A stretch of 41,185 nucleotides of DNA, taken from IMG/VR virus record IMGVR_UViG_3300027737_000005, positions 1-41,185 of that record. One strand, given 5' to 3'. The position numbers and the translations under genes were made by a program. The notes below the pieces were generated by a model. It saw only the letters and a list, made by a program, of their open reading frames with translations. It did not search any database and was not told the DNA's origin. This DNA comes from a virus. Positions within the stretch are counted from its first letter, which is position 1, and each line of letters starts with the position of its first letter. Shown piece after piece: positions 10,439 through 35,420 of the stretch.

Positions 10439-11614
10439 TTAATTCACAGGAAAATCGCTCAAAAACGCGTTCCAATAAAGAACGTTGCTTGTAACGCCGT
10501 TCATTGTTGCCGTAGTTAAAGCAGTACCTGCGCCGGACCCTAAAATGAATCCTGCCGATGTACAATTGATAAATGCACCTTGTATAGCAGGACCGTTAAC
10601 CGTTGCTGACTGGCTCAGGGTGTTTCCACCATAAATAGTCGGCGATGGATAAAGGTTTGGAGACGGAGAAACTCCCGTATAGGGATAACCACCGCTGTTT
10701 ATGTCTCCCACAGCTAATACCTGAGCAAACTTCAATCCTGGGAAAGAAGTAAACGCGGGATTAGCTACAGAAAATGCTGTATAAGAAGGGGCATTTAAGA
10801 ACGTAAACGAAGTAGCACCTGTCACCGTATTTACATAAAAGTAAATAGGCTGGCCTGGAATTGTCGTATCAGGAAGCGAATTCAGTTGAGTTGCCCCATA
10901 CACTGAAGGCATCCTAAACGTAATTTGCTGCCCTACTACAAAGTTGTGAGGAGCTGTAGTATTTACAGTCGTCACACCGTTTGTCGTAGATATGCTCCAA
11001 GGATATGCTACACCGGGCTCATACAAACTAGGATACAAGATTTGCTTAAATCCAGCAGCTCCTGTGGCTGCCGTTGTAATAGCCGTCAAATTAGCTGCAT
11101 TTCCTACCCAACCGACTGTAAATGTAGTCGTGCTACCGACAGTCAATACTTGGAACGGAATGCCAGCAATTTGCTGCATACCTGTTGTCGAGGTCTGATA
11201 CAGATTCTGAAAAATCACCCAGTTACCCGGCAATAGCCCATGCGCTGCTGCTGTAGTAACAGTAAGAACCGTCGAGCTAGTTTTCGCAATACCAGCACCT
11301 CCGGTCGTTCCCAGGAGCACCAAAGGCCCAAACTGCAACAGTTGCCCAGCTGCAAATGAACTGATACCATTTGTAGTCACCGTATCATATTGCAGATATG
11401 GTGTTGTGTTATAACCTTGGATTATCGCAGAGCCTTGTCCCATGGACACATCCCAATACCCACTAATGACGTTTTGCGACGTCGGTGTAGTACCTGCTAA
11501 TGTATAGTTCCAGAATTGGACAAAATCTGGCTGATAAGGAAGATTAATCACGATCGATGAGCCCGTAGCAGGATTTGTTACGTGCCCTTTTGCTATTCTC
11601 GAATACTCTGCCAT
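10439..11614 (-). CDS. head decoration or fibre-like protein (391 aa from ATG 11614)
   Basis: GGAGG RBS lies in the capsid gene's last codons, then ATG (MAEYSRIAKGH). Repeated AHGLLPGNWVIF and APHNFVVGQQITF modules. It directly follows the capsid gene. Confidence 0.6.
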   Translation of the reverse strand: MAEYSRIAKGHVTNPATGSSIVINLPYQPDFVQFWNYTLAGTTPTSQNVISGYWDVSMGQGSAIIQGYNTTPYLQYDTVTTNGISSFAAGQLLQFGPLVLLGTTGGAGIAKTSSTVLTVTTAAAHGLLPGNWVIFQNLYQTSTTGMQQIAGIPFQVLTVGSTTTFTVGWVGNAANLTAITTAATGAAGFKQILYPSLYEPGVAYPWSISTTNGVTTVNTTAPHNFVVGQQITFRMPSVYGATQLNSLPDTTIPGQPIYFYVNTVTGATSFTFLNAPSYTAFSVANPAFTSFPGLKFAQVLAVGDINSGGYPYTGVSPSPNLYPSPTIYGGNTLSQSATVNGPAIQGAFINCTSAGFILGSGAGTALTTATMNGVTSNVLYWNAFLSDFPVN

Positions 11615-11615
11615 A

Positions 11616-13133
11616 TTATGGACCTCCCAACGAGCTAAGTCTAGTTGAGACGATATTTCGGATAGCCGTATCTTGTGTGATTGCTTGCGCTTGCGCAAAC
11701 TTCACCGCAAGCGTCGCATTCTGAGCCATCATTCCTGAATAATACGGATCGCGATAAATCAAGTTCATGGAGTATCCATCCTGATTTATATGCGTGATGG
11801 CTTGCTTGCCTATTACTGTATTGTAATAGACATCACTGCCATTGGCAGATGCTCCACGTGCAACAGGCGCTTCTGAGCTAGTCAGAATACGGATGTTGAA
11901 CACAGAACCATACTCAGAAGGCAATGCCGAAGAATTATTTGGATAATTCCATTGGTTAATGAAACCAGAACCTGTCAGCGCGTCGAAATCGGTTTGTAGT
12001 TCCGTTGACGACAGCATGAAATATGCCGAACGCACAGGACCAGTACCGAATCTGTCCATGCCTTCGATACCCGACATGAACTTGTAAGCATTGTTCGTGT
12101 CAAGAGTCGTTGCTACCAAGCTAAAGTCAGACACTCCAAGATTAGTTGGATTGTCCCCGTTAGAGCCGCCACCAGCATTAATCTGAGAAGCTGCAGAAAC
12201 GACGTAGTCGCGCAAAATTAACAATCTGTTACCCCACTTTCGTGTGGATAGGTCATTTCTGCCTATCTCCAGACCTTTCGTCGTCTGGTTCGGACTGTCG
12301 CATCCCATTTCTGGGCCTCTTCACTCAGTCTCTCACGGTGGCCTAAAGCCTTCCGCCCTGTCGGCATGCCTTTCGGGTTAGCCTTCCAAGTCAATCAGAA
12401 GAGGTTTATCGAGGACTTAATCTTAATCCTCGGCTTGCCGCATTGCAACAGCCAGTCTTTCGCTGACCCATGCAAGTACCATTTATGCAGCAGCTAAGAG
12501 GGCGTACTCATTACCCTCCTGGTCCTGGAGAATACATTTTTGTTACTCCACATAGTGGGGACAAGTCATTTCTGCTTGTCTCTGCGACTTTCTTTATTCT
12601 CGCAGATCGGACTATCGCTTAACTTTTCAGTTCCTACCCGCTTTAGTCTCTCACGGCCTATAAACCAACAAAGCATTAAATAAGAATGATTATCAAATTC
12701 TTTCAATCTTTCTATATATTCTTTCGTAAGTTCCATAGTTCCGCCTTATCACCCTGTCGGGCTTCTAAGTCAATTAGGGCTGGTTTATAGCAGGCTAAAT
12801 TCTCATCCACCTGCTCATTGATTATGCAGCCAGTCTATCGCATAACCAATTGTTTCGGCACTGGCGACCACCGAAAAAAGCCATCTGGGCGTCTATGATA
12901 TCCCTTTGAGGGACCTGCGCGGGTGGATCTATCCCGCTGTTACCCAACTGAATGGTGGGTGGTGTTAGCGCCCTCGGGCGCATAAATCTAGCAGTCGTGC
13001 CGCCGTTTGCTGGCATACTGATCTTATCGCACACAGTGATGTAGTTCATCGTGGGCGTAGGAACATAGAGCATTGCGGGAGCTAACGATTGTAGAATGAG
13101 GGGACCTAGGTTCCCTGTAGTCGTAATCGACAT
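11616..13133 (-). CDS. major capsid protein (HK97-fold type), split by two group I introns: exon 1 is 13133..12870, a micro-exon ends at 12513 and starts between 12534 and 12550, exon 3 starts 12234-12225 and ends at 11616
   Basis: Exon 1 reads PANGGTTARFMRPRALTPPTIQLGNSGIDPPAQVPQRDIIDAQMAFFG. Exon 3 reads LLILRDYVVSAASQ...NLIYRDPYYSGMMAQNATLAVKF, which looks like a capsid C-terminus. The gap carries ribozyme cores and no ORF. Confidence 0.75.
12226..12512 (-). ncRNA. group I self-splicing intron, capsid intron 2, ORF-less (3' end at 12226, 12232, 12233 or 12235)
   Basis: In minus orientation: P1 AGGAGGGU/GCCCUCUU with a closing U-G pair, P3 CCUCUUC/GAAGAGG, R-like GUGAGAGACUG (12336..12326), P8 CCCA-GAAA-UGGG (12314..12303), J8/7-P7 GCGACAGUCCG (12301..12291), P9 CCAGAC/GUCUGG. 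Confidence 0.8.
12535..12869 (-). ncRNA. group I self-splicing intron, capsid intron 1, ORF-less, with an AT-rich ~85-nt insertion in the P6 region (3' end at 12535, 12548 or 12551)
   Basis: P1 UUUCGGU/GCCGAAA with a closing U-G pair, R-like GUGAGAGACUAA (12654..12643), P8 AACU-GAAA-AGUU (12632..12621), GCGAUAGUCCG (12618..12608), P9 UCUGCGA/UCGCAGA. Homologous to the other two introns. Confidence 0.8.
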
Positions 13134-18380: not shown

Positions 18381-20357
18381 TTACCTCATTTGGGCCATCT
18401 GGCCCTGTTGTTGATTCTGATTATTCATACTGCCCATTATCTGTGCAATAAATCTTTTAGAAGCTTCGCTCTTCTCGATATCTTTTCGCGCATTCTTTTC
18501 TGTTTCTTCTTCGTCAAATTTAATAGAGTCAAGGTTATTAGATTGTAAGAATGTTTCCAACTCTCCAAATTTCTGAATGGTTTCCAGAAGCATCGTAAGA
18601 GCCTCCATCTTTTCTTTTGTCGCTAGGCTATGGTTCTTGCTTATCTCGCTCATACGCTCTTCAAACAATCCTACATTGCTTTCACTTCTAGAATCCCTCT
18701 CACGCGCCTGGGAGAGCAGATTATGGATCCTTGCCATAAGCTCTTTCATCTTCATTTCTTCAACAGTGTGCTTGATATTAATCTCTTCTGACTGCACTGC
18801 TTGCATCTGCTGCTCTTGTTGTTGCAAAATCTGCACAATCTCTGCTTTTCCAGTGATATTGAGCTTAGGAATAATCTGAGAAGGTGAGAACACTTCGCGC
18901 CCAAAGGCCGCATTCATATCCATCATCTGCTGAGCTTGCAAGTTTTGTTGCGTCGGAGTCAAGTCACTCTCTTCGACAATACACTGAAACTTGCTAAATA
19001 TCTTACTGTAGAAATATGGAGAAGGCTCCTCGCCTATTAACAATCCAACTTTCTCAGCACTCCAATTGTTTAAGGCTATCTGCAAAAGACGTTCTCCAAG
19101 AAGTTTATCTGAAAAGTCCCACTGATCAAAATATTTCTGAAAAACCATCAAATTAGCAGCTGATTTCAACATCATCGTCAGACTACTTATCTGCTTATCA
19201 TTTTGTCCAGACCAATTCTCGAGATTAATTCCCGCTGTTTGCCATATCAAATTACCCATCTGCTCCGCAAGAGCCATATCGCTCTCTGGTACTCCAGAAG
19301 GGATAATTTTTTCACAATCCGTCATCTCGTAGCCTTCATTGATGATGACGTCCCAGCCCTGTCCAGACTTCTTAAGATTGTCTTCATTTGCAACAGCTCC
19401 AACTTTTCGCTTCCAACCCGCATTGATTGTCGCAGCTGTGATATCGTTGTTTGTGATGATCTTATAATTATAAAGAAATTGAGGATCGCGCATAGTCCGA
19501 ATAAGCCCACGAACGCGCAGATCGTAATAATTGTTATGCGGTTCGTAGTTCCAGTAATAGGGAATGAAAGGACATCCATCGAAACCAAGAGGATTATCGC
19601 CCTGAAACATCAACTGATCGTTCAGAACCACAGCAAGTTTCCAGCACGGTGCCTCTACGGTTACTTCTTCCATGTCCGGAATACTATATAAAATCTGCTC
19701 CAAGTGGCCATCATCCCCAGCAAAGTCAAAGAATTGATTCCTAGTACGACTATAAAGCCTTTTTTTCTTCCGTTTCCATTTGTACCAGACATATGAGAGC
19801 ACCATTAAATCGTTTCTCGCCATATTGTAGTTTTCCGGAAGGAAATAAAAACTTCCGTACCTCTGAGGCGTTCCAGCCATCGGCACAATAGCCTCTAACT
19901 TATCAGGAAAACGGCTTTCCGCCTCTTTTTTGCTGATGTATTCTTGACACCATACAAACTGAGCATCGCTCATATCAGGGCTTCTAAAATATGGATCTAC
20001 CAAAAACGCATTATATTCCCACAACTTGAGCTTCAGCTCTCCTTGAGCCTGATCATCTCCTGTATAGTCTAAATATGGCTGTAGAAGTACCATACCGGTG
20101 ATCGCCGACTGTTCTTTGGCTTGCGATTTTGTCTCATGAATCATCCCTTTGTTCGCCACATGCGTAATCAATTTTGTGTACTGGTCCGTCGTCTGCGGAT
20201 CCGCCCCCTCCGTCGGCACATAACTAAAATTTTTCCGATGCTGCCTCTCACACCCCGTAAGCATATTAATAGGCTGCTGGCAGATGTTAAAGTAGTACTG
20301 CTGAAACGATGTCGTAGGGCTAAAATTGAAATACCGATTCACAAACGTCTGGGCTTT
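18381..20357 (-). CDS. portal protein, main exon
   Basis: About 650 aa with a portal-like N-region (YYFNICQQPINMLTGCERQHRKNFSYVPTEGADPQTTDQYTKL, which parallels the P22 gp1 layout) and a C-terminal Q-rich coiled coil. It lies downstream of terL. The frame is open back to 20357. Confidence 0.8.
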   Translation of the reverse strand, partial: KAQTFVNRYFNFSPTTSFQQYYFNICQQPINMLTGCERQHRKNFSYVPTEGADPQTTDQYTKLITHVANKGMIHETKSQAKEQSAITGMVLLQPYLDYTGDDQAQGELKLKLWEYNAFLVDPYFRSPDMSDAQFVWCQEYISKKEAESRFPDKLEAIVPMAGTPQRYGSFYFLPENYNMARNDLMVLSYVWYKWKRKKKRLYSRTRNQFFDFAGDDGHLEQILYSIPDMEEVTVEAPCWKLAVVLNDQLMFQGDNPLGFDGCPFIPYYWNYEPHNNYYDLRVRGLIRTMRDPQFLYNYKIITNNDITAATINAGWKRKVGAVANEDNLKKSGQGWDVIINEGYEMTDCEKIIPSGVPESDMALAEQMGNLIWQTAGINLENWSGQNDKQISSLTMMLKSAANLMVFQKYFDQWDFSDKLLGERLLQIALNNWSAEKVGLLIGEEPSPYFYSKIFSKFQCIVEESDLTPTQQNLQAQQMMDMNAAFGREVFSPSQIIPKLNITGKAEIVQILQQQEQQMQAVQSEEINIKHTVEEMKMKELMARIHNLLSQARERDSRSESNVGLFEERMSEISKNHSLATKEKMEALTMLLETIQKFGELETFLQSNNLDSIKFDEEETEKNARKDIEKSEASKRFIAQIMGSMNNQNQQQGQMAQMR

Positions 20358-20650
20358 CTGTTACTTTTGTGACCTATCTCTAGGCGGGGTTCCCTCTTCG
20401 GAGATCCCTCTCCATATTACTATGGAGTTCAGACTATCGCTTCACCTTGCGGTGTCCTCTCACTTAGTCGTTCACGGTCCCTTTCGGGTTCCGCCTTGTC
20501 TTCCCATAGGGAGGTCCAAGTCAATCAGAGAAGATTTAAACAGGGCCCAATTTTCAAAAAATTACTTAACCCTGCGTAAAATAAAGTGTCAATATTAGAT
20601 TGATTCCAGCGCTACTCACTTTATTTACTAACAGTCCCGCTTTCATATTA
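20358..20650 (-). ncRNA. group I self-splicing intron at the 5' end of the portal gene, ORF-less
   Basis: P1 AACAGUCU/GGACUGUU with a U-G pair at the splice site (U20651), 12-bp P2 GUAAAUAAAGUG/CACUUUAUUUUAC, P3 UCUUCUC/GAGAGGA, GUGAACGACUAAG (20475..20463), P8 CACC-GCAA-GGUG (20454..20443), GCGAUAGUCUG (20440..20430), P9 CUCCAUA-GUAA-UAUGGAG. Confidence 0.8.
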
Positions 20651-20692
20651 AGACTGTTCTATTGGTTGAAATTTTGAATATAAATTATCCAA
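20651..20692 (-). CDS. candidate portal exon 1 (14 codons from TTG 20692; start codon uncertain)
   Basis: This is the only frame open through the 5' splice site. It reads (RQW)LDNLYSKFQPIEQS and joins in frame to KAQTFVNRYFNFSP at 20357. The frame has no ATG. Confidence 0.3.
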
Positions 20693-20785
20693 CCACTGTC
20701 TGACGTTCCCTTGATTCGGTTCCAGAGCATTGTTCCAAGGGGGGTAATAGAAGGAAATGGCACACCTCGTTGTTAAAAAAGTTTC

Positions 20786-20932
20786 CTATGACCTTTTTAT
20801 AACATCGTATCCATATTCACTCAAGAATTCTTTGCACCACTTCAATTTATCATCTTTCCTACATTGCTTACACGCTGGTTTGAGAGCCTTTTCGCTTAGA
20901 ATCATTTCACATGAAATACATTTGTTGGGCAT
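20786..20932 (-). CDS. small zinc-ribbon-like protein (48 aa)
   Basis: TAAGGAGG RBS then ATG. MPNKCISCEMILSEKALKPACKQCRKDD carries CxxC...CxxC. Confidence 0.55.
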   Translation of the reverse strand: MPNKCISCEMILSEKALKPACKQCRKDDKLKWCKEFLSEYGYDVIKRS

Positions 20933-21024
20933 GATGTCAACCTCCTTAGTTGTCCTAATGAAATGCAAGCCAGGCGGTAGGAATCCGCTTTTCGAGTGCC
21001 CTCTAGGCTTGTGCAAACATTATA

Positions 21025-21108
21025 TCACTTTCTGTTTATCTTCCTCAACGTATTTCCAATGATCCATCCGGCGATTGCTGCCATGAACGCTACTAGGTAG
21101 GTCATCAT
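21025..21108 (-). CDS. tiny hydrophobic peptide (27 aa)
   Basis: MMTYLVAFMAAIAGWIIGNTLRKINRK lies about 40 nt downstream of polypurine array copy 1. Confidence 0.25.
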   Translation of the reverse strand: MMTYLVAFMAAIAGWIIGNTLRKINRK

Positions 21109-21143
21109 GTTCAATACTCATCCAATCCACTTATTTTCTTTCA

Positions 21144-21224
21144 TAAAACCATTGCTTTCCTTTCCCTTCCTTTCCCCTCCTTTCCTCTCCTTTCCATTCC
21201 CTCTCAAAATTATCCAAACCTCGA
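21144..21224 (-). repeat. polypurine pentamer array copy 1: TCGAGGTTTGGATAATTTTGAGAG + (ANNGG)x11 + AAAGCAATGGTTTTA (gene orientation)
   Basis: Read directly. The terminal ATG opens the mini-ORF ATG GTT TTA TGA. Confidence 0.85.
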
Positions 21225-21225
21225 T

Positions 21226-21654
21226 TCAAATTGCGTAATACTCGATTTCTTTTCGGATCAACCGCGAACTCCTGCCTAGGCGATTCAGCCAACTCTGCAT
21301 GTGCACCACCTCAGATTTTGTATCATTATCAAATTTATGCATCGGCATATTTTCCGCTTGTTTCCTTCCTCGCGCATGTTGCTTGTTGCCTCTCTTAATC
21401 CTCCTCTCCAGAGCCTGCGGAGCATCTTTCAATGGCTTTATATAAAGATTTAGGTGATATGTCTGACACGGCATTCCTTTGTCCTGATCAATGAATGCCA
21501 TCAACTGCATAATCGCACTTCGATAAGCAAGTGAGTCATAATCATGTGTACCAAACAGATCTCCCAAGATCTCTTTATCTATATGATGGTTATACTTAAT
21601 CTCTCCAACAGCACACAGTTTTTCAAATATAGCCTCTTTTTCTTTCTTTTTCAT
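21226..21654 (-). CDS. hypothetical protein (142 aa)
   Basis: ORF with a plausible start MKKKEKEAIFEKL; no motif recognised. Confidence 0.5.
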   Translation of the reverse strand: MKKKEKEAIFEKLCAVGEIKYNHHIDKEILGDLFGTHDYDSLAYRSAIMQLMAFIDQDKGMPCQTYHLNLYIKPLKDAPQALERRIKRGNKQHARGRKQAENMPMHKFDNDTKSEVVHMQSWLNRLGRSSRLIRKEIEYYAI

Positions 21655-21677
21655 AGTTGTCCTTTTCTATATAATGA

Positions 21678-21866
21678 AACAAAAAAAACTAAACGCAACT
21701 TAACATAACTAAACTGAACAAAACGTAACTCAACGCAACTTAACTTAACGAAACTTAACTTAACGAAAACTAACCTAACGAAACGGAACTTAACCTAACG
21801 AAACCAAACTCAAACTAACCAAACATAAATAAACTCAACTTAACTTAACAGAACTTAACTCAACAA
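21678..21866. repeat. G-poor tandem pentamer array (NAACN)x~38 on the plus strand, i.e. (NGTTN)n on the transcribed minus strand
   Basis: aaact aaacg caact taaca taact aaact gaaca aaacg taact caacg caact taact taacg... runs about 190 nt, is intergenic, and has only about 11 G on the plus strand. Confidence 0.85.
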
Positions 21867-21869
21867 AAA

Positions 21870-22493
21870 TTATTTTGCTTTCTTAAACTCTTCTACGCTA
21901 AACGTTCCGTAATTTCCTGTAGCCATTCCAGGTCTCAAGTCGCACAAACCATATTCATAGCCGGCTGTCTCCAAAATCATTTCCAGATCTGCTTCAGGCA
22001 ACAACTCGGTATCTAGCAACAAATTAAACTTCACTTCCCACCTATGGAAAATTGGCCTGGTTTGCACCACGCGAGCCATTCCCACTACAAGATTTTCTAC
22101 AAAAACATATGTTCTTTCCCCTTCTTCGTTTACTTCACTATAAAGCGATTCTACATTTTGTCCTTTATACGGAATCAGTGGATACCCTAAAGGTTCATCC
22201 AAAATGACCGCTTTCGTCTGCTTGCCTAATCTAAACTTCTTTGCAGACGCTTTGATGCATCCTTGAAGGCATTTCGAAGGCATATATACGCCCAATTTCT
22301 TGTCGTAGTAAAGAGCGGCCTCGAACTTTAATCTAGCCAATGCTATATGATGATCGTCTGTTTTTTTCCTAATACATGTGATTTCTTTGATCTTTTTAGT
22401 CAAAGGATGAAGTGGATTGCACGCTTTATCGCAATTCATGATAAGAGGCGTCGCCCCTTTTATATGGACACTATACTTTTTTGTGTTATTCAT
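21870..22493 (-). CDS. hypothetical protein X1 (207 aa), paralogue of 34409..35017
   Basis: Shared pattern: N-terminal hIxGxxPLxMx (VHIKGATPLIMN vs ITIRGIRPLLMH) and a C-terminal Gly-rich loop (GMATGNYGTFSV vs GRSIGMGRFEI). Confidence 0.6.
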   Translation of the reverse strand: MNNTKKYSVHIKGATPLIMNCDKACNPLHPLTKKIKEITCIRKKTDDHHIALARLKFEAALYYDKKLGVYMPSKCLQGCIKASAKKFRLGKQTKAVILDEPLGYPLIPYKGQNVESLYSEVNEEGERTYVFVENLVVGMARVVQTRPIFHRWEVKFNLLLDTELLPEADLEMILETAGYEYGLCDLRPGMATGNYGTFSVEEFKKAK

Positions 22494-22598
22494 AGGCTCC
22501 TGAAAATCGCAGTATGTCCAAATACACTACTGATTTTCATCCCATCATGTCAAGCACTGAATTTTCACATGAATTTAGATAACTGCTTGAAAACCAAC

Positions 22599-23030
22599 CT
22601 ATTTCCAAAACTCCCACCATCTTCGCCTTGAGCGCTTACCTCCTGCAACCACCTCGAGTGCCTTCACCAACAGATCTCGCATTCCGAGTATCTGGACTTC
22701 CGACCGAAAACAATGCTGTCTAACGTCTTCCAAAAATAACTTAATCTCTTCTTGCGTCTTAAATACCTCATCCAAACGTCTAAGAAACCCAGACACCTCA
22801 ATTTTTTCATTAAGCTTTTCAAGCAAGCTATTTGTGTCTGTTAAGTTTTCGACCGTTTCTTTTGTTTTTTCGTGACACTTGCGAATCGTTCTTAGGTCTT
22901 TCGCCCATGCTTCCGTCACCTCTAGAGTAATTTGGTCCAGTATTCGCATCTGCTCCTCCGTCCAATGCTGCCCTCTAGAATTCGGCCGAATCCATGGCGT
23001 CGGATCCGGCGTTTTCCTTTTTAAAACCAT
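22599..23030 (-). CDS. hypothetical protein (143 aa) whose ATG is the conserved ATG of array copy 2
   Basis: GGAAAGCAATGGTTTTAAAAAGG gives MVLKRKTPDPTPW.... The ORF-track extension upstream only reads through the polypurine array. Confidence 0.55.
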   Translation of the reverse strand: MVLKRKTPDPTPWIRPNSRGQHWTEEQMRILDQITLEVTEAWAKDLRTIRKCHEKTKETVENLTDTNSLLEKLNEKIEVSGFLRRLDEVFKTQEEIKLFLEDVRQHCFRSEVQILGMRDLLVKALEVVAGGKRSRRRWWEFWK

Positions 23031-23117
23031 TGCTTTCCTTTCCTTTCCTGTCCCTTCCTTTCCTTTCCCTTCCTTTCCATTCCCCTTCCTTCTCTCAAAA
23101 TTATCCAAACCTCGAAT
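23022..23117 (-). repeat. polypurine pentamer array copy 2, with the same 5' flank TCGAGGTTTGGATAATTTTGAGAG (here the last codons of terL)
   Basis: Read directly; ends AAAGGAAAGCAATGGTTTTA. Confidence 0.85.
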
Positions 23118-24378
23118 CGAATCGCCCTTGCATATATTTAGTGGGATTATGCTTGTATGGCTGATAAATCGCAACCTTATGGGTTGATAAACAATATCTT
23201 AAACAGTCTACCAAGTGATCATCTTTTTTGATGGGTTTGTCTTCTCCTCGCTCTGCCACTTTCGGATCCCAGCAATAGCCCTCTATCTCTCGTATCAAAT
23301 TGCGGCACTTGCTCAGAATTAGGCATTTTCCCTCTTTTACGTCGGACACCATCCTGTGGATTCCGGGAACGACCTCATTGTTAGCATCTACACAATGCAC
23401 ACCTCGCTTGCCTAGATCATGTCGCAAAGCTGCTGCGCTCGGGTCAATATACACTCCTTTAATCGCATACGGTTCCAAAAACGCAACGATATCATCTGCC
23501 AATTCGCTGACCGCTTTTTCTCTGTTTTTTACCTTGACGTCCCAAAAATACTCATCTTCTACCCACATCTGTTTACCTGTTTGTGTCTGCATTCCTGTCG
23601 ATACCCCTATAAGCACACAAGCGCAGGGATTGGACATCCCATAATCAACGCCCGCTATCCAATAATTGGCACCACAGGGAGGCTCGTCTACTACATAATA
23701 GTCTCGATCCCAAAAATCAAACACGGCGCCCTCCGCCAGGCACCATATACCCAAGTAGTTTCTTTTGTAAAAAAGCCCCGACAAACTATTTGCAAGCATT
23801 TCTTTATAATCCTTAGGTAAGTAAGGATTATCATCGATCATGAATTGCAACGCATAGTATTTAGGATCCCCTTGCTCGGCTAGATCTATTAACCCTTTGA
23901 TCTTATGCGTCGGATGCTTTGGATTCATGCTCGCAAAGCCTATGCTATGAGGCAACCTAAGCCTCGTCAATATCATTTGGAGGACGTTTTCTGGAAACAA
24001 AGTCATCTCATCAGCATAGGCAATACTGATCGTTTTACCTTGTATACGTCCTATCGAGCCTTCGTCTTTTGCTCCTATGACAGTGATCGTTTTATCGAAT
24101 ACTTTGAGCAATCCGTTGCCAGGAAACCACGTGCAGAACGGTTTGTAAATGGCAAATTGCGGTGTTTCGAATATAAGTTTTATACAGTTTTCATATACAG
24201 TTGATGACGAAAACCCAAACATATAGATCTGACTGTCAGGACATTCGTAAACAGCTTGAAGAAAGCGAAATAGCGTAGCTACCGTTTTTCCGCTGCTGAC
24301 AGGGCCGTGAGCAAAATTCCAGCCCTTTGTGCTATTAATTATAAATTCAAGTTGCTTAGGAGAAAAGGGATCTGGCAT
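23101..24378 (-). CDS. terL: terminase large subunit (425 aa from ATG 24378)
   Basis: Walker A GPVSSGKT, Walker B-like ISIAYADE, and a C-terminal nuclease-type region (WIAGVDYG..., DDHLVDCLRY). AGGAAT lies upstream of the ATG. Confidence 0.85.
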   Translation of the reverse strand: MPDPFSPKQLEFIINSTKGWNFAHGPVSSGKTVATLFRFLQAVYECPDSQIYMFGFSSSTVYENCIKLIFETPQFAIYKPFCTWFPGNGLLKVFDKTITVIGAKDEGSIGRIQGKTISIAYADEMTLFPENVLQMILTRLRLPHSIGFASMNPKHPTHKIKGLIDLAEQGDPKYYALQFMIDDNPYLPKDYKEMLANSLSGLFYKRNYLGIWCLAEGAVFDFWDRDYYVVDEPPCGANYWIAGVDYGMSNPCACVLIGVSTGMQTQTGKQMWVEDEYFWDVKVKNREKAVSELADDIVAFLEPYAIKGVYIDPSAAALRHDLGKRGVHCVDANNEVVPGIHRMVSDVKEGKCLILSKCRNLIREIEGYCWDPKVAERGEDKPIKKDDHLVDCLRYCLSTHKVAIYQPYKHNPTKYMQGRFDSRFG

Positions 24379-24390
24379 ATTCCTGATACT

Positions 24391-24768
24391 ATGAGAAACC
24401 GAGCTAAATGTAAACTCTGTTCTAGCATTATTGAAAGCTTCCATCCAACTGACTATGTCGCATGTAAGTGCGGAGAGATATCTGTCAGCGAAGGAGCTGC
24501 AATGCGTTGTGCGGCTCTCAATTGGGACAATTTTCTCCGCGTTGATGACGAAGGTAACGAAATTGTTCCTAATGTTCAGATGGCAGAGGCTGCAATTGTT
24601 CCTAGAGAAACACACTCGAAGCCTACCAAAAAAGAACTTTTAGATATGTTAGAAGAGATGATAAAGAATATAGAACGGCTTCCATCTAATGCGATGGCTC
24701 AGCCTGTGAATCATTATGACTTGGTTTCGGCGCTACTGTTGTTGTCGTCTATCTTCAAAACCGAATAG
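24391..24768 (+). CDS. small zinc-ribbon protein (125 aa) on the opposite strand between terL and the MTase gene
   Basis: MRNRAKCKLCSSIIESFHPTDYVACKCGEISVSEG has the CxxC...CxC pattern common in small phage proteins. ATG lies 12 nt from the terL ATG, and the 3' end overlaps the MTase 3' end by 36 nt. Confidence 0.55.
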   Translation: MRNRAKCKLCSSIIESFHPTDYVACKCGEISVSEGAAMRCAALNWDNFLRVDDEGNEIVPNVQMAEAAIVPRETHSKPTKKELLDMLEEMIKNIERLPSNAMAQPVNHYDLVSALLLLSSIFKTE

Positions 24769-26019
24769 ATCGAGCTCTGGTTCTTTGGCTGCTCTCAGCC
24801 GATTTTCTGCGATTTCGAAGTAATCTTCTGATATCTCAATCCCTACTGCACTTCGCCCAAGTTGCTTTGCTGCGACTATTGTAGTTCCAGAACCTGCAAA
24901 TGGATCTAGCAATACGGCTTCAGGATTAGGCGGCATTATAAGTTTTATGAGATACTGCATGAGGGCGAGAGGTTTGACCGTTGGATGAACTGATGGTTTA
25001 TCAAGCCCCGCATTACGCTCAGCTGAGGAGGCTTTCGCGCAGTAGAAGAAGCGGGATGCACCGCCGGAATCGCCGAATCCTGATTCTTGAGCAAGTATCT
25101 TTAAGCCTTTTGCATATCCAACCCATTCTTTTTTTCTCGAACCTGGCTTTCCACTTTTTAGATTCCCACTCTGCTGGTCGAGTAATTCTGCGGCTTCTTC
25201 ATCCAGAAGGAGATTAGCGGGCCAGCGGCCGGTTAGATTTTCTCCTGTGATTGTTCCGGATGGAATCGCATTTAATTGCTTGCACCCTATCCCACCACTT
25301 CCAAAAGGTCGTGCAAGTGATTCGCTTGTCCCAATCCTACACCCATCAATATTAATGCCAGCTACTCCCCATTTCTCTGCATTCTGGGCAAATGTGCCTT
25401 CGCAGGGCTTCATGGCCATTATAATTATTTCAACTGCCGGCTTTAGAGCAGTTCCGTAACCTTCAAATCCTTTAATGCCATCGCATTTTTCACACGTTCC
25501 CATTCGATTAGTTTGTGTGTTCGATTGTCCGGAAACAGTTCCAGATTCTCGATTGCATTGTTCCTGGTATTGTGATCTTTGTGATGAACCACTTCTATCC
25601 TTTGCAATATCTTGTTGAGGTGTTTGGCCATCACTAATCGATGTTCCATCACATAACCGTCCTTGCGAGCCATTATCCCCAGTACATTTGCAACCAAAAT
25701 TATGACTTTTCGGGAATCCTTGTCCGAAACACCAATAAAGGCAAGTTCTGATTTCCCATCCTGCTTGTTCAAGTGCATTCATAAGATGGTGATGAGTACG
25801 ATCACCTCCAAAAGCTAGTAGATGAGCTCCTGGCTTACAGATGCGAAAAGCTTCTTCCCAGAAGTGTTTGCCAGGAATGCCATGGTCCCAGTCTTTACCC
25901 ATGAAATGAAGGCCATAGGGAGGGTCGGTGATGATGCAGTCAATGGAGTTGGCCGCCATTGTTCGCATGGCTTCGAGGCAATCACCCTTGATTATTTTCT
26001 GTGTCGCTCTTTGGAGCAT
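24733..26019 (-). CDS. DNA methyltransferase, N6/N4 beta-class (428 aa), uninterrupted ORF
   Basis: Motif IV DPPYG comes near the N-terminus, with GFPKS, GTALKPA, GRWPAN and HPTVKP in between, and motif I DPFAGSGTT near the C-terminus. Confidence 0.85.
   Translation of the reverse strand: MLQRATQKIIKGDCLEAMRTMAANSIDCIITDPPYGLHFMGKDWDHGIPGKHFWEEAFRICKPGAHLLAFGGDRTHHHLMNALEQAGWEIRTCLYWCFGQGFPKSHNFGCKCTGDNGSQGRLCDGTSISDGQTPQQDIAKDRSGSSQRSQYQEQCNRESGTVSGQSNTQTNRMGTCEKCDGIKGFEGYGTALKPAVEIIIMAMKPCEGTFAQNAEKWGVAGINIDGCRIGTSESLARPFGSGGIGCKQLNAIPSGTITGENLTGRWPANLLLDEEAAELLDQQSGNLKSGKPGSRKKEWVGYAKGLKILAQESGFGDSGGASRFFYCAKASSAERNAGLDKPSVHPTVKPLALMQYLIKLIMPPNPEAVLLDPFAGSGTTIVAAKQLGRSAVGIEISEDYFEIAENRLRAAKEPELDLFGFEDRRQQQ
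25443..25778 (-). CDS. HNH endonuclease ORF in the +1 frame inside the MTase gene (111 aa from ATG 25778, or 76 aa from ATG 25673)
   Basis: KDGYVMEHRLVMAKHLNKILQRIEVVHHKDHNTRNNAIENLELFPDNRTHKL is a full HNH signature (HH...N...N...H). It coincides exactly with the variable linker of the MTase frame. Confidence 0.6.
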   Translation of the reverse strand: MHLNKQDGKSELAFIGVSDKDSRKVIILVANVLGIMARKDGYVMEHRLVMAKHLNKILQRIEVVHHKDHNTRNNAIENLELFPDNRTHKLIEWERVKNAMALKDLKVTELL

Positions 26020-28054: not shown

Positions 28055-28983
28055 TATCCTCTCTGTTTTTCGGCTTGTTTTTCATCTTGTTCTTTAGCAA
28101 ATTTTCTTTTAGCCCAGATTTTCCACCATCCTTGTGTGATTCCGTCTTGTAGATAGGCTTCTGTGAGTATTTCGCCTTGTGCGAATTTCTTTTTTTGCAT
28201 TGCATCGAACCAATCAAGGATCAAAAGCATGTCTTTGTGAGAATGTCGAGAAGACCATTGTTGGATGGATTGATTTTTGAGAGATGATCCATCCATGAGT
28301 TTGAACGTGGCGATACGGGCAAAGACGAGTTCGAGAAGCGATTCTTCGGACGTGTTCTCCGACGATAAAGACGAGGACGTAGACGGCTTGTTTGCCTTTT
28401 GTGAGAAAGGCGATTTCGAAGGCTGTGGCGAATGTTGATAACTCGCTTGCGAGTTATCAACATTTCCACAGCCCCTAAACGAACGTACGTCTTTTTTAAA
28501 GACGATCTCTTCGTCTTCATCCGTTGTTTGTTTTTTCCCAGGAAGATTGTCTCTCTTTTGTCTCTCTTTTGTCTCTCCTCTGGTCTCACTTTCTGTCTCA
28601 CTTTCTGTCTCTCCACTTTCGTAAAATCCATTCAACAATATATTGTAGACCTGTTTTTCTCGTCTCTCTTTTTGTCTCTCTTTTTGTCTCTCCAAAATGC
28701 GCCGGCTTTGCGCCGGCACATCGCCACGTACTTTTTTATGGCTGTTCAGTCCAATGAAATGATCGATAGCATGCTCGGCTGTTGATTTAGATGTTTTTGC
28801 CTCTTTAGCTATCTCTCGAACTGATTTTTGGCATTGACCTTTCTTCAAATTTGCTTTGTTCTGATCTTCGAAGGCTGTATGCCGTAAAATAGTTATCAAA
28901 ACCATTTTATAGTCATTGGAAGCTTTTTCCCACAAAACGTGTTCGAAAAGTTCTTCCGGTATTTGGGTGAATTTTTTAGCCAT
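28054..28983 (-). CDS. replication initiator-like protein with an N-terminal winged HTH (309 aa from ATG 28983)
   Basis: AAGGAG RBS then ATG. MAKKFTQIPEELFEHVLW...SVREIAKEAKTSKSTAEHAIDHFIGL, with central RQKERQKER and ETESETESETRGETKERQKRD repeats encoded by DNA iterons. Confidence 0.5.
   Translation of the reverse strand: MAKKFTQIPEELFEHVLWEKASNDYKMVLITILRHTAFEDQNKANLKKGQCQKSVREIAKEAKTSKSTAEHAIDHFIGLNSHKKVRGDVPAQSRRILERQKERQKERREKQVYNILLNGFYESGETESETESETRGETKERQKRDNLPGKKQTTDEDEEIVFKKDVRSFRGCGNVDNSQASYQHSPQPSKSPFSQKANKPSTSSSLSSENTSEESLLELVFARIATFKLMDGSSLKNQSIQQWSSRHSHKDMLLILDWFDAMQKKKFAQGEILTEAYLQDGITQGWWKIWAKRKFAKEQDEKQAEKQRG
28549..28692. repeat. iteron-like direct repeats flanking an AT-rich segment, inside the initiator gene (candidate ori)
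   Basis: TCTCTCTTTTG x2, TCTCTCCTCTGG, TCTCACTTTCTG x2, then AT-rich 28622-28658, then TCTCTCTTTTTG x2. Confidence 0.5.
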
Positions 28984-33383: not shown

Positions 33384-34049
33384 ATGGAATATCCAAAGAT
33401 ACATTCACTATATAAAAGAGAATCGCATGGAAAAAGACAACTTATTATTGGAGATCTGGCCAAAGAAGAATTCAGATCCATTATTCATTGGACAGTCACT
33501 GAAAAAGTGGACGGTACAAACATACGAATTTGTCTGGATCGCGCAACACTTATACGTGAAGGCCACAACTACATCAAATTTGGAGGCAGAACAAATAACG
33601 CTCAAATCCCTTCAAGTCTTCTGGAATATCTACAAGCCACATTTACGTACGAAAAGATGGATAAAATATTCGCAGATTCGCAATTCATCGTGTTATTCGG
33701 TGAGGGATATGGTCCAAAGATACAATCTGGTGGCTATTATCGAAGTGATGTATCGTTTATTCTGTTTGATGCATATGTGTCGGGCTGGTGGTTAGAGAGA
33801 GATAAGATCGTTCAGATAGCACACGATTTAGGCATCGATCATGTACCTTTAATTCCTTCTAGAAATGTTTTAGAGCCTGATTTATGGAATTTATATGATA
33901 TTGTCAGCCAGGTGAGATCGAAACCGCAGTCCGCGTTAGCAAAAGAATGTTATATAGCAGAGGGAATAGTCGCTCGGAGCTATCCTTTGATGTTATTTCG
34001 GAATGGAGAGCCGATTATGTTTAAGCTAAAGTGCAAAGATTTTCCATAG
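33384..34049 (+). CDS. ATP-dependent RNA ligase-like nucleotidyltransferase (221 aa from ATG 33384)
   Basis: MEYPKIHSLYKRE...WTVTEKVDGTNIRI carries motif I KxDGxN, and EGYGPKIQ follows later. GAGGA RBS lies 8 nt upstream. Confidence 0.6.
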   Translation: MEYPKIHSLYKRESHGKRQLIIGDLAKEEFRSIIHWTVTEKVDGTNIRICLDRATLIREGHNYIKFGGRTNNAQIPSSLLEYLQATFTYEKMDKIFADSQFIVLFGEGYGPKIQSGGYYRSDVSFILFDAYVSGWWLERDKIVQIAHDLGIDHVPLIPSRNVLEPDLWNLYDIVSQVRSKPQSALAKECYIAEGIVARSYPLMLFRNGEPIMFKLKCKDFP

Positions 34050-34120
34050 GAAGGGAATGGAGAGGAAAGGAAGGGATAGGAAGGGACAGGAAAGGAATGG
34101 ATGGGAAAGCAGTGGTTTTA
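34049..34120 (+). repeat. polypurine pentamer array copy 3: (ANNGG)x~13 + AAAGCAGTGGTTTTA
   Basis: Read directly. A GTG-initiated mini-ORF (VVLIRRGENG*) has its stop overlapping the start of the next gene. Confidence 0.85.
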
Positions 34121-34136: not shown

Positions 34137-34292
34137 ATGGATAAGACAAAATCGACAATGTTTTTGGAATGGATTTCAATCGTCGCCCCTGTTATTGCAT
34201 GTTCTCTTTTTCTCTACGGAGAGATAAAAGATCAAAGACAAAGAACAGATAAATTATATGAAACGATAATTGATTTAATAAAGTCTATGTAA
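34137..34292 (+). CDS. small TM protein, distant 'KDFHGRL' family-like member (51 aa)
   Basis: GAGGTG RBS then ATG. MDKTKSTMFLEWISIVAPVIACSLFLYGEIKDQRQRTDKLYETIIDLIKSM. Confidence 0.5.
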   Translation: MDKTKSTMFLEWISIVAPVIACSLFLYGEIKDQRQRTDKLYETIIDLIKSM

Positions 34293-34304
34293 ATAACTCT
34301 AGTG

Positions 34305-34385
34305 AAGTGGAATGGAAGGGAAAGGACAGGATGGGATAGGAATGGAAGGGAAAGGAATGGATGGGAAAGGAAAGCAGTGGTTCTA
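34305..34385 (+). repeat. polypurine pentamer array copy 4: (ANNGG)x~14 + AAAGCAGTGGTTCTA
   Basis: Read directly. The stop of mini-ORF VVLKNQKWKGK* overlaps the ATG at 34409 (ATGA). Confidence 0.85.
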
Positions 34386-34408: not shown

Positions 34409-35017
34409 ATGAAACTTAAGAAAGCGACAATAACGATTAGAGGTATACGTCCTCTTTTAATGCATAAATTCAATATTTCTGTTTTGTCAACAGAACGGAA
34501 ATCGAAGAAAGGGAGTGCTGGAAATAATCCTGATGAATGGAAAGAGACCGTTTTCTGCGAAGATGATGGCACTCTTTTCATGCCTGGAGAATATTTTTTT
34601 GCATGTCTAAAGAATGGAGCAATCCATACGAAAATTGGTCGTGGGACTATCCAGAAAAAAGTGGCGGCAACTCTGCAGATCATAACAGAGAAATCTATTC
34701 TGAATCGGAAGTTACCTGGAAAATTGGATGAATTATCTGTCGAAAATTGGCCGAAAGTGGGCCAAGGTCCGGTGTACCTTGACATAAGGGGGGTGATGAA
34801 TCCTAATAGCAAAGGGCGCAATGTGCGGTATAGGGTTGCATGTACACCTGGTTGGGAATGTACTTTCGAATGTCAATGGGATGATACTATTGTGTCGTCT
34901 GATCATATGAGAGCGGTCTTTTCTGATTCAGGAATATTGGGAGGGATCGCCGATGGCAGAAGTATCGGCATGGGACGATTTGAGATTATCAGTTGCGATA
35001 TAGAAAACGTTAGATAA
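34409..35017 (+). CDS. hypothetical protein X2 (202 aa), paralogue of 21870..22493
   Basis: ATITIRGIRPLLMHKF at the N-terminus and GGIADGRSIGMGRFEI at the C-terminus; see X1. Confidence 0.6.
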   Translation: MKLKKATITIRGIRPLLMHKFNISVLSTERKSKKGSAGNNPDEWKETVFCEDDGTLFMPGEYFFACLKNGAIHTKIGRGTIQKKVAATLQIITEKSILNRKLPGKLDELSVENWPKVGQGPVYLDIRGVMNPNSKGRNVRYRVACTPGWECTFECQWDDTIVSSDHMRAVFSDSGILGGIADGRSIGMGRFEIISCDIENVR

Positions 35018-35038: not shown

Positions 35039-35100
35039 GGAAAGGAAAGAACTGGAAGGGACAGGAAAGGACAGGAAGGGAGGGGAAAGCAATGGTTTTA
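35039..35100 (+). repeat. polypurine pentamer array copy 5: (ANNGG)x~10 + AAAGCAATGGTTTTA
   Basis: Read directly; mini-ORF ATG GTT TTA TGA. Confidence 0.85.
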
Positions 35101-35161: not shown

Positions 35162-35410
35162 ATGGATTGGTACCACATTTTAGGAATAATTGTCGGCAAT
35201 GCTGCGATTTTTATACCTATGTTTTTTTGGCTACGTACCGAGGCGAATTCGGATAGACGACAGATGCAGGATACGGCCGCAGCGGATAGAAGAGATCTTT
35301 TGCAGATTATAAGAGAAATTCAAGCTGAAATGAAAGATTTCCATAGCCGCCTTGAGCGAATAGATATTGAGTTCAAGGGCTATTTGATTCAAGAGGCAAA
35401 GAAGCGATAG
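35162..35410 (+). CDS. small TM plus coiled-coil protein, 'KDFHGRL' family member (82 aa)
   Basis: MDWYHILGIIVGNAAIFIPMFFWLRTEANSDRRQ...IIREIQAEMKDFHSRLERIDIE. Confidence 0.6.
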   Translation: MDWYHILGIIVGNAAIFIPMFFWLRTEANSDRRQMQDTAAADRRDLLQIIREIQAEMKDFHSRLERIDIEFKGYLIQEAKKR

Positions 35411-35420
35411 CGCCTATCAA

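Follow-up and report, generated by a model that had tools for sequence, protein, structure and literature searches.

The window analyzed here, a stretch of 41,185 nucleotides covering positions 1 to 41,185 of the IMG/VR virus record IMGVR_UViG_3300027737_000005, is a tailed-phage genome. Between the minus-strand gene X1 (207 aa) and the following gene of 142 aa it contains a tandem array of pentamers (21685-21864, minus strand), consisting of 36 gap-free units of GUU plus two free positions (NN). We propose, with a probability of about 0.9, that this GTTNN tract is a guide-RNA (vrRNA) array of a Viral Interference Programmable Repeat (VIPR) system, formed by the vipr gene X1, the array and a vap1-like gene. 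We base this on the identification of X1 as a Vipr homologue, on the vrRNA grammar of the array and on the presence of such arrays beside vipr in related as well as distant genomes.

VIPR systems were described in two 2026 bioRxiv preprints as being composed of the phage RAMP protein Vipr, the accessory gene vap and the vrRNAs (10.64898/2026.04.26.720920; 10.64898/2026.04.26.720927). Vipr, known from SUSP1 and P. fulva, is a single-RRM RAMP with thumb and glycine-rich loop. A vrRNA contains 9-16 pentamers, each combining a conserved GGY with a hypervariable NN (a YNNGG repeat), and ends in an invariant tail (10.64898/2026.04.26.720920), and Vipr polymerizes on this repeat RNA as a helical filament with one protomer per repeat (10.64898/2026.04.26.720927). 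GGY is flipped out and buried, NN is presented, and the filament reads double-stranded DNA through the pairing of successive NN with the target, every third target base being skipped; the outcome is transcriptional silencing of competing phages, prophages and satellites (10.64898/2026.04.26.720920; 10.64898/2026.04.26.720927). Seven VIPR types were distinguished, with "GGY/NN or a related consensus" and the alternatives NNNGG, YNNNG and NNNNG (10.64898/2026.04.26.720920; 10.64898/2026.04.26.720927). Array layouts also vary, as staggered, ribozyme-interspersed and tail-less arrays occur among the natural variants (10.64898/2026.04.26.720920).

Both flanking genes are encoded on the minus strand. 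Read in this sense direction, from 21864 to 21685, the tract is (GTTNN)36 without any insertion or deletion and comprises 33 GUU and 3 UUU units; on the plus strand, NNAAC pentamers follow each other in unbroken succession from 21685 onward. Two degenerate units (TTTTG and TTTCA) prolong it to 21675. A preliminary description of this DNA, made from the sequence alone, had reported about 38 units with an NGUUN core at 21678-21866. The location was right, although the clean limits are 21685-21864, and the number of units was a fair estimate (36, or 38 with the two degenerate units), while the conserved core proved to be GTT followed by two free positions. The same description was justified in pointing to the transcribed minus strand, and its count of about 11 G on the plus strand agrees with the 11 C that we counted in 185 nt of sense strand. 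Over 37 units, position 1 was occupied by G (33/37) or T (4/37; 1.5 bits) and positions 2 and 3 invariably by T (37/37; 2.0 bits each). Positions 4 and 5 held only 0.23 and 0.16 bits, respectively, and 13 different dinucleotides were used.

The tandem array reported in the preliminary description was confirmed by two approaches. A phase-locked scan of the window, in which a trinucleotide had to be present in at least six of eight consecutive 5-nt slots, recovered the GTTNN tract together with five polypurine arrays, and it returned no array at all in 20 shuffles of the window. Tandem Repeats Finder independently called a period of 5 nt with 36.6 copies at 21686-21868, and higher-order periods of 15, 20, and 30 nt within the tract. 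The 300 nt from 21600 to 21900, which include the tract, agreed at every position (100% identity) among five metagenome contigs assembled independently from different samples; both an assembly artefact and instability of the tract within this phage can therefore be dismissed. Metagenomes containing the phage include JGI 3300004082 and ENA ERZ27315279. The tract is strand-asymmetric and AT-rich, and as RNA it folded no better than shuffled sequence (z = +1.58), which agrees with the expectation for a protein-coated guide. No boundary was discernible from the sequence inside the 36 contiguous units (180 nt). The repeat-spacer organization of CRISPR arrays (direct repeats of about 24-48 nt with unique spacers) was absent, the periodicity of the tract being limited to 5 nt and its multiples.

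The gene upstream of the tract, X1 (21870-22493, minus strand), encodes a Vipr homologue. A PDB sequence search with X1 gave one strong match, entry 36pp ("SUSP1 Vipr protein"), with E values of 6e-30 for the single sequence and 8.7e-49 for the family profile and with 33% identity. The AlphaFold2 model of X1, calculated with 24 homologues, had a pLDDT of 92 and showed a RAMP fold with thumb and glycine-rich loop, as in the backbones of Class 1 CRISPR systems; the best PDB folds in a Foldseek search with this model were Csm3 and type VII Cas7 (E down to 6e-6, TM about 0.5). X1 falls into phrog_4652, a family annotated as of unknown function, and a Pfam scan of X1 and the 142-aa protein assigned no family to either. 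The preliminary description had singled out X1 as the protein to be tested against the RNA, a choice borne out by its homology to Vipr. It had also interpreted the 5-nt phase as one unit per subunit of an oligomer, which would fit a Vipr filament with one protomer per repeat as reported in the preprints. Its suggestion of a ring-forming binder (TerS, TRAP or HutP) has to be abandoned, as X1 is a Cas7-like RAMP Vipr and the Vipr assembly is a helical filament (10.64898/2026.04.26.720927).

In SUSP1 Vipr, contacts to the RNA or the skipped base are made by K33, R138, D177, and R179, H17 contacts G1, and W178 stacks on G2 (10.64898/2026.04.26.720927). The first four residues are kept in X1 as K36, R146, D185, and R187, respectively. 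All members of the GUU clade have leucine (L186) in place of W178 and a G-loop that is longer by five residues, while homologues of the X1/SUSP1 family with a GG scaffold have W, Y, or F at the position of W178. Judged from the alignments, these changes would be compatible with a changed second scaffold base; the correspondence carries little weight, however, because it represents essentially one evolutionary split, and the link between this residue and the scaffold fails in the second Vipr family described below, which has G or A at this position irrespective of the scaffold.

The 142-aa gene (21226-21654, minus strand) follows vipr directly, and a gene of 136-157 aa follows vipr in every relative or locus that we examined. 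It is a remote homologue of vap1: a comparison of its family with the family containing SUSP1 vap1 in hhalign gave a probability of 94.9% (E 4e-8, 115 aligned columns). Pairwise BLASTP between the 142-aa protein and SUSP1 vap1 was not significant, and the link is made by profile-profile comparison only. A back-translated pattern search of IMG/VR with the 142-aa protein returned zero relatives. The tract fills the gap from the stop codon of X1 to the ribosome-binding site of the vap1-like gene, and no terminator was found between the two genes. Downstream of the tract only a weak U8/purine helix was predicted, over the vap ribosome-binding site. A possible, weak promoter of the vipr operon (22524-22553, minus strand; TTGACA, an 18-nt spacer, TAGTGT) failed a consensus scan; analogous elements are a TTGACA-N17-TATTAT upstream of the first array in the related locus L025 and TTGACA boxes in the loci L024 and L026.

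GTTNN arrays were present beside vipr in seven relatives (L001-L004 and L024-L026). Three IMG/VR relatives with 72-86% X1 identity contain them in the same gap, with entirely different lengths and NN content. In L024, L025, and L026 (70-81% X1 identity) arrays are located on both sides of X1 and again behind the gene that follows it. In L004 (54% X1 identity) vipr and vap overlap, and three GTTNN arrays follow vap (11077-11620), each ending in a conserved tail made of GGTTTTATACGG, a GC hairpin and then CCTTACAAGTGAAT; the GUU scaffold can therefore accompany a tail architecture like that of SUSP1. When the 239 units of these seven low-GC relatives were pooled, the positions G, T, and T contained 1.5-1.9 bits, positions 4 and 5 only 0.04 and 0.02 bits, and all 16 NN dinucleotides were used. 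The arrays of the relatives ranged from 7 to about 29 units, compared with 36 here, and 22 of 23 were on the vipr sense strand. The sole array in opposite orientation (L026, 6532-6586), which reads AAC on the sense strand of vipr, is located upstream of the promoter of vipr, beside divergently transcribed tail genes. Distant homologues with 30-35% identity, from GC-rich Proteobacteria, had GGCNN or GGYNN arrays no more than about 1.3 kb away.

The preliminary description had suggested checking whether the array is conserved in relatives: the GTT scaffold, the phase and the adjacency to vipr were kept, while NN content and length differed. That description had counted hypervariability among close relatives as evidence against a function. 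Hypervariability was indeed observed, yet it points in the opposite direction: as scaffold (GTT), phase (5 nt), strand and adjacency to vipr are all conserved, variable NN and variable length are the signature expected of a guide RNA.

No conserved sequence followed the inter-gene arrays of the window, L001-L003, and L024-L026. Tails were visible elsewhere: each L004 array is followed by the hairpin, L024 has GGGCTA, and the GGANN arrays of the window carry tails as well. The sequence GTTGCGTT recurs close to the 3' ends of arrays from several relatives; we considered whether it might be a minimal tail, but it is not universal. In the more distant relatives L004, L006, and L007, vipr and vap abut or overlap with no array between them. 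Near the vipr-vap pair of L006 (160-1212; 46% X1 identity, GC content 34%) no pentamer array was detectable, and its Vipr has A and K at the G-loop positions corresponding to D177 and W178; this pair may be a decayed or re-purposed system.

Several observations weigh against a vrRNA array. The scaffold is GUU, while it is GGY in the characterized vrRNAs (GGU or GGC in SUSP1); GUUNN fits the listed YNNNG consensus only if it is phased as UUNNG, and the preprint text, as far as it was available, does not spell out GUUNN (10.64898/2026.04.26.720920; 10.64898/2026.04.26.720927). X1 has N20 in place of the G1-contacting H17 of SUSP1, a residue that is histidine in all relatives. The 36 contiguous units (180 nt) compare with 9-16 units in characterized vrRNAs (12-16 in SUSP1), which are RNAs of less than about 100 nt. 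A conserved or structured 3' tail could not be recognized behind the tract, which runs directly into the vap ribosome-binding site with its Shine-Dalgarno sequence. Finally, searches with exact seeds found only chance-level, non-extending matches, both in IMG/VR (8-unit seeds) and in JGI metagenomes (9-unit seed).

For these searches the NN series were converted to (xNN)n patterns with the 1-nt skip rule of the preprints. The IMG/VR seeds covered units 1-8, 9-16, 17-24, 25-32, and 29-36, and the JGI metagenome seed units 9-17. Between 13 and more than 120 matches were obtained per seed, none of which extended into neighbouring units beyond chance; imperfect targets, which count from an NN match of at least 80%, could be missed, because a perfect block of 8-9 units was required. 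All arrays of the window were also compared with the window itself and with all fetched loci, where the best scores equalled the shuffled null (18/24 for self-targets in the window), and the GTTNN arrays of the seven relatives likewise scored no better than this null when compared with the window and the relatives.

Most of these points would also suit an RNA that binds Vipr without being a guide, either a sponge or store by which free Vipr is buffered, or an autoregulatory leader, in which Vipr coating the RNA beside the vap ribosome-binding site would set the ratio of vipr to vap expression. The apparent lack of a 3' tail, the direct contact with the vap Shine-Dalgarno sequence, a length more than twice that of characterized vrRNAs and the negative target searches are in line with such a role, as is the overlap of vipr and vap without an intervening array in distant relatives, by which the intergenic position is not essential. 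However, positions 4 and 5 vary as freely as those of bona fide guides and are completely different from one relative to another, a freedom that a pure scaffold or sponge does not need, and tail-less and staggered arrays are among the published natural variants (10.64898/2026.04.26.720920). We therefore regard a non-guide RNA as improbable, though as the least improbable of the alternatives. A functionless, microsatellite-like product of neutral slippage in an intergenic spacer would account for the wide range of array lengths (7 to about 29 units in relatives, 36 here), for the three-unit indel polymorphism in a neighbouring GGANN array and for the higher-order periods of 15, 20, and 30 nt. 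Slippage yields homogeneous units, though, while three positions are near-invariant and two random in the tract and in the 239 pooled units alike; moreover, the arrays are tied to the strand of vipr and occur with it in different genomes and at different GC contents, the motif shifting to match, and the tract did not vary at all across five samples. This explanation is close to refuted.

Even less credit can be given to an element acting at the DNA level. The preliminary description had considered a pac site of the small terminase subunit, an origin or unwinding element and a recombination site, and the tract indeed lies between the genes for the large terminase (23101-24615, minus strand) and a P22-type portal protein (18381-20342, minus strand), is strand-asymmetric and AT-rich, and finds a parallel in the L004 arrays just upstream of terminase genes. 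Yet in L024, L025, and L026 the module and its arrays are surrounded by recombination or tail genes and remote from the terminase gene; two or three copies flank each gene of the module, and the association is with vipr rather than with packaging or replication genes. As the vipr-vap module and its arrays thus travel together into quite different neighbourhoods in different phages, and as the abutting genes of L004, L006, and L007 have no array between them, these proposals find no support, including that of a recombination hotspot. Similarly negligible is a TRAP- or HutP-like attenuation leader, in which a ring protein of host or phage would bind the GUU triplets and regulate the 142-aa gene through read-through or translation. 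A triplet with a 2-nt spacer is formally the same as a TRAP site; still, TRAP would be expected to use about 11 (G/U)AG triplets, and 36 GUU units far exceed a single 11-mer ring. Nor were a competing terminator or antiterminator or a stable alternative structure seen, and no Cas, TRAP or HutP family was matched among the eight proteins scanned around the array (18381-26019), while Vipr, a dedicated binder of pentamer repeats, is encoded immediately upstream. Once X1 had been identified as Vipr, we dropped the earlier ideas that the tract might be an anti-Rho spacer poor in C, a primer of R-loops or of an origin, one of several recombination linkers around gene cassettes, a sponge for CsrA or Hfq, or a set of RNase E processing sites.

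If the tract is a vrRNA array, its mode of action may be sketched by analogy with SUSP1. The tract would be transcribed with the operon, and one Vipr protomer would bind each pentamer, flipping and burying the three conserved bases and presenting NN. Such a filament would read double-stranded DNA through successive NN, skipping every third target base, and its binding would repress transcription of a competing phage, prophage or satellite, with the vap1-like protein, presumably DNA-binding, enhancing the silencing. As 36 units are too long for one characterized vrRNA of 9-16 units, the tract is probably cut or loaded as several guides. A more specific proposal, which we make tentatively and consider rather doubtful as a whole, is that the locus represents a VIPR subtype with G-U-U recognition, a long tail-less intra-operon tract following a different loading or cutting rule, and an orthogonal second system.

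This second system is centred on a divergent vipr gene (X1b, 202 aa; 34409-35017, plus strand) and is separate from the GUU locus. The only PDB sequence match of X1b was SUSP1 Vipr (36pp, E 1.2e-3), with the G-loop D-x-R and the GRF motifs aligned; in its alignment (A3), G12, P15, the thumb R, and the D and R of the G-loop were invariant. About 490 homologues were found, some of them from Bacillus and Kroppenstedtia, while a back-translated pattern search of IMG/VR with this second Vipr returned zero relatives. The five polypurine arrays recovered by the scan are candidate vrRNAs of this system: array A, (GGANN)11 with tail GCAATGGTTTTA (23022-23088, minus strand); array B, (GGANN)9 with tail GCAATGGTTTTA (21144-21200, minus strand), just after vap; array C, (GGANN)12 with tail GCAGTGGTTTTA (34049-34120, plus strand); array D, (GGANN)14 with tail GCAGTGGTTCTA (34304-34385, plus strand), immediately upstream of the second vipr; and array E, (GGANN)10 with tail GCAATGGTTTTA (35039-35100, plus strand), immediately downstream of it. 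All five are purine-rich on the sense strand and end in the invariant 12-mer GCA(A/G)TGGTT(T/C)TA, matching the published layout of 9-16 repeats plus tail. Arrays C, D, and E are grouped around the second vipr, and A and B flank the first system on either side, sharing a common 25-nt 5' flank (ATCGAGGTTTGGATAATTTTGAGAG). As the second Vipr is flanked by the GGANN arrays D and E, the phage would carry two VIPR systems with different scaffolds. The preliminary description had noted a kinship of the GTTNN tract with 5-nt polypurine arrays, and this was well seen. With the second Vipr and five tailed candidate vrRNAs of GGA scaffold, (GGANN)9-14, in the same phage, the scaffold trinucleotide might serve as an address label against cross-loading.

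The NN positions of the GGANN arrays are A-biased (about 0.6 bits), and the information content of these arrays is therefore lower. One of the five sampled copies (L071) has a 15-nt deletion of three units in array A (23064-23078), an in-phase length polymorphism of the repeat tract and the sole difference over 6.6 kb. The pairing of the second Vipr with pentamer arrays is supported by related loci: among its relatives, one with 82% identity (L075) has flanking (GGNNN)8-11 arrays that end in GCAGAGGTTT, and one with 54% identity (L076) has flanking GTTNN arrays. Short open reading frames (ORFs) of about 27, 51, and 82 aa follow the tails of arrays B, C, and E, respectively (about 21040-21110, minus strand; 34138-34293 and 35163-35411, plus strand), and each has a hydrophobic, apparently membrane-spanning stretch as judged by eye.

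Of the wider surroundings, a DNA methyltransferase gene (24733-26019, minus strand) completes the scanned neighbourhood, and blastn of the window region 20500-24700 against the INPHARED phages gave no match. The Rfam int-alpA RNA motif (RF02996) was detected at 20944-21013 on the minus strand (41.3 bits; gathering score 35.8), overlapping the start region of a cysteine-rich 76-aa ORF (20786-21016). Between this ORF and the portal gene, about 440 nt (20343-20785, minus strand) contain no sense-strand ORF of at least 40 aa and are overlapped only by mechanical ORFs of the opposite strand. This interval includes TGGTTGGATAATTT, a partial copy of the 5' flank common to arrays A and B, and may encode another non-coding RNA. 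Tandem repeats with a period of 12 nt, in two blocks (TGTCTCTCTTTC and GTCTCTCTTTTT), are present in the early region (28547-28692) and are unrelated to the pentamer arrays.

VIPR has been proposed to be an ancestor of the RAMP effectors of CRISPR and to offer a very small platform for programmable DNA binding. The locus described here would add an uncultivated low-GC phage lineage in which GUU is the hidden part of the repeat. As the change to GUU coincides with a substitution at the position contacting G2 in the SUSP1 structure, it may be seen as a natural experiment on scaffold reading. The long tail-less array raises the question of how the ends of guides are defined, and two scaffolds in one phage bear on the orthogonality and the stacking of weapons against competitors. 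For annotation, strictly phased pentamer tracts beside genes of the phrog_4652 type should be considered as vrRNA arrays rather than as simple repeats.

Repeat-based RNAs of other systems resemble the tract in part. The TRAP sites of the Bacillus trp leader are (G/U)AG triplets with spacers of 2-3 nt, one unit being bound per subunit, and thus also combine a conserved triplet with a short free spacer. However, TRAP is an 11-mer ring, smaller than 36 GUU units would require, its RNA is a regulatory target, and its spacers carry no information. In type III toxin-antitoxin systems, the ToxI arrays are likewise non-coding RNAs with tandem repeats, encoded beside their binding protein and often carried by mobile elements; their repeats are structured, about 36 nt long and cut by the toxin, while the units here are unstructured and 5 nt long and the partner is a RAMP protein rather than a ToxN/AbiQ nuclease.

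Closer is the relationship to the Cas7/Csm3 filaments that Class 1 CRISPR systems form on CRISPR RNA, with which X1 shares the RAMP fold, the thumb and the glycine-rich loop. Cas7/Csm3 and Vipr are alike in placing one protomer on a fixed number of guide nucleotides and in periodic base flipping (10.64898/2026.04.26.720927). The period of VIPR is 5 nt, with three bases flipped and two read, while that of CRISPR is 6 nt, with one flipped and five read. In VIPR the specificity is spread over the repeats themselves, unlike in CRISPR, and neither a repeat-spacer array nor Cas1/Cas2 or Cas6 was found among the neighbouring genes scanned.

The nearest counterpart is the type II VIPR system of Escherichia phage SUSP1 (PDB 36pp), in which vipr is followed by vap1 and (GGTNN)12-16 arrays are located upstream and downstream, each with leader and tail. 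Like SUSP1, the locus is phage-encoded, has a homologous Vipr with a gene of the vap1 family directly after it, and contains intergenic pentamer arrays on the sense strand with three conserved and two hypervariable positions. That no self-target scored above the shuffled null is in line with SUSP1 and with the reports on natural VIPR systems (10.64898/2026.04.26.720920; 10.64898/2026.04.26.720927). Unlike in SUSP1, the tract has no recognizable tail or pseudoknot and no repeated leader, and it lies between vipr and vap, while the SUSP1 arrays precede vipr or follow vap. Systems of this kind are already known from the 2026 preprints, and what varies here is the GUU scaffold, the long tail-less tract within the operon and the co-resident second system.

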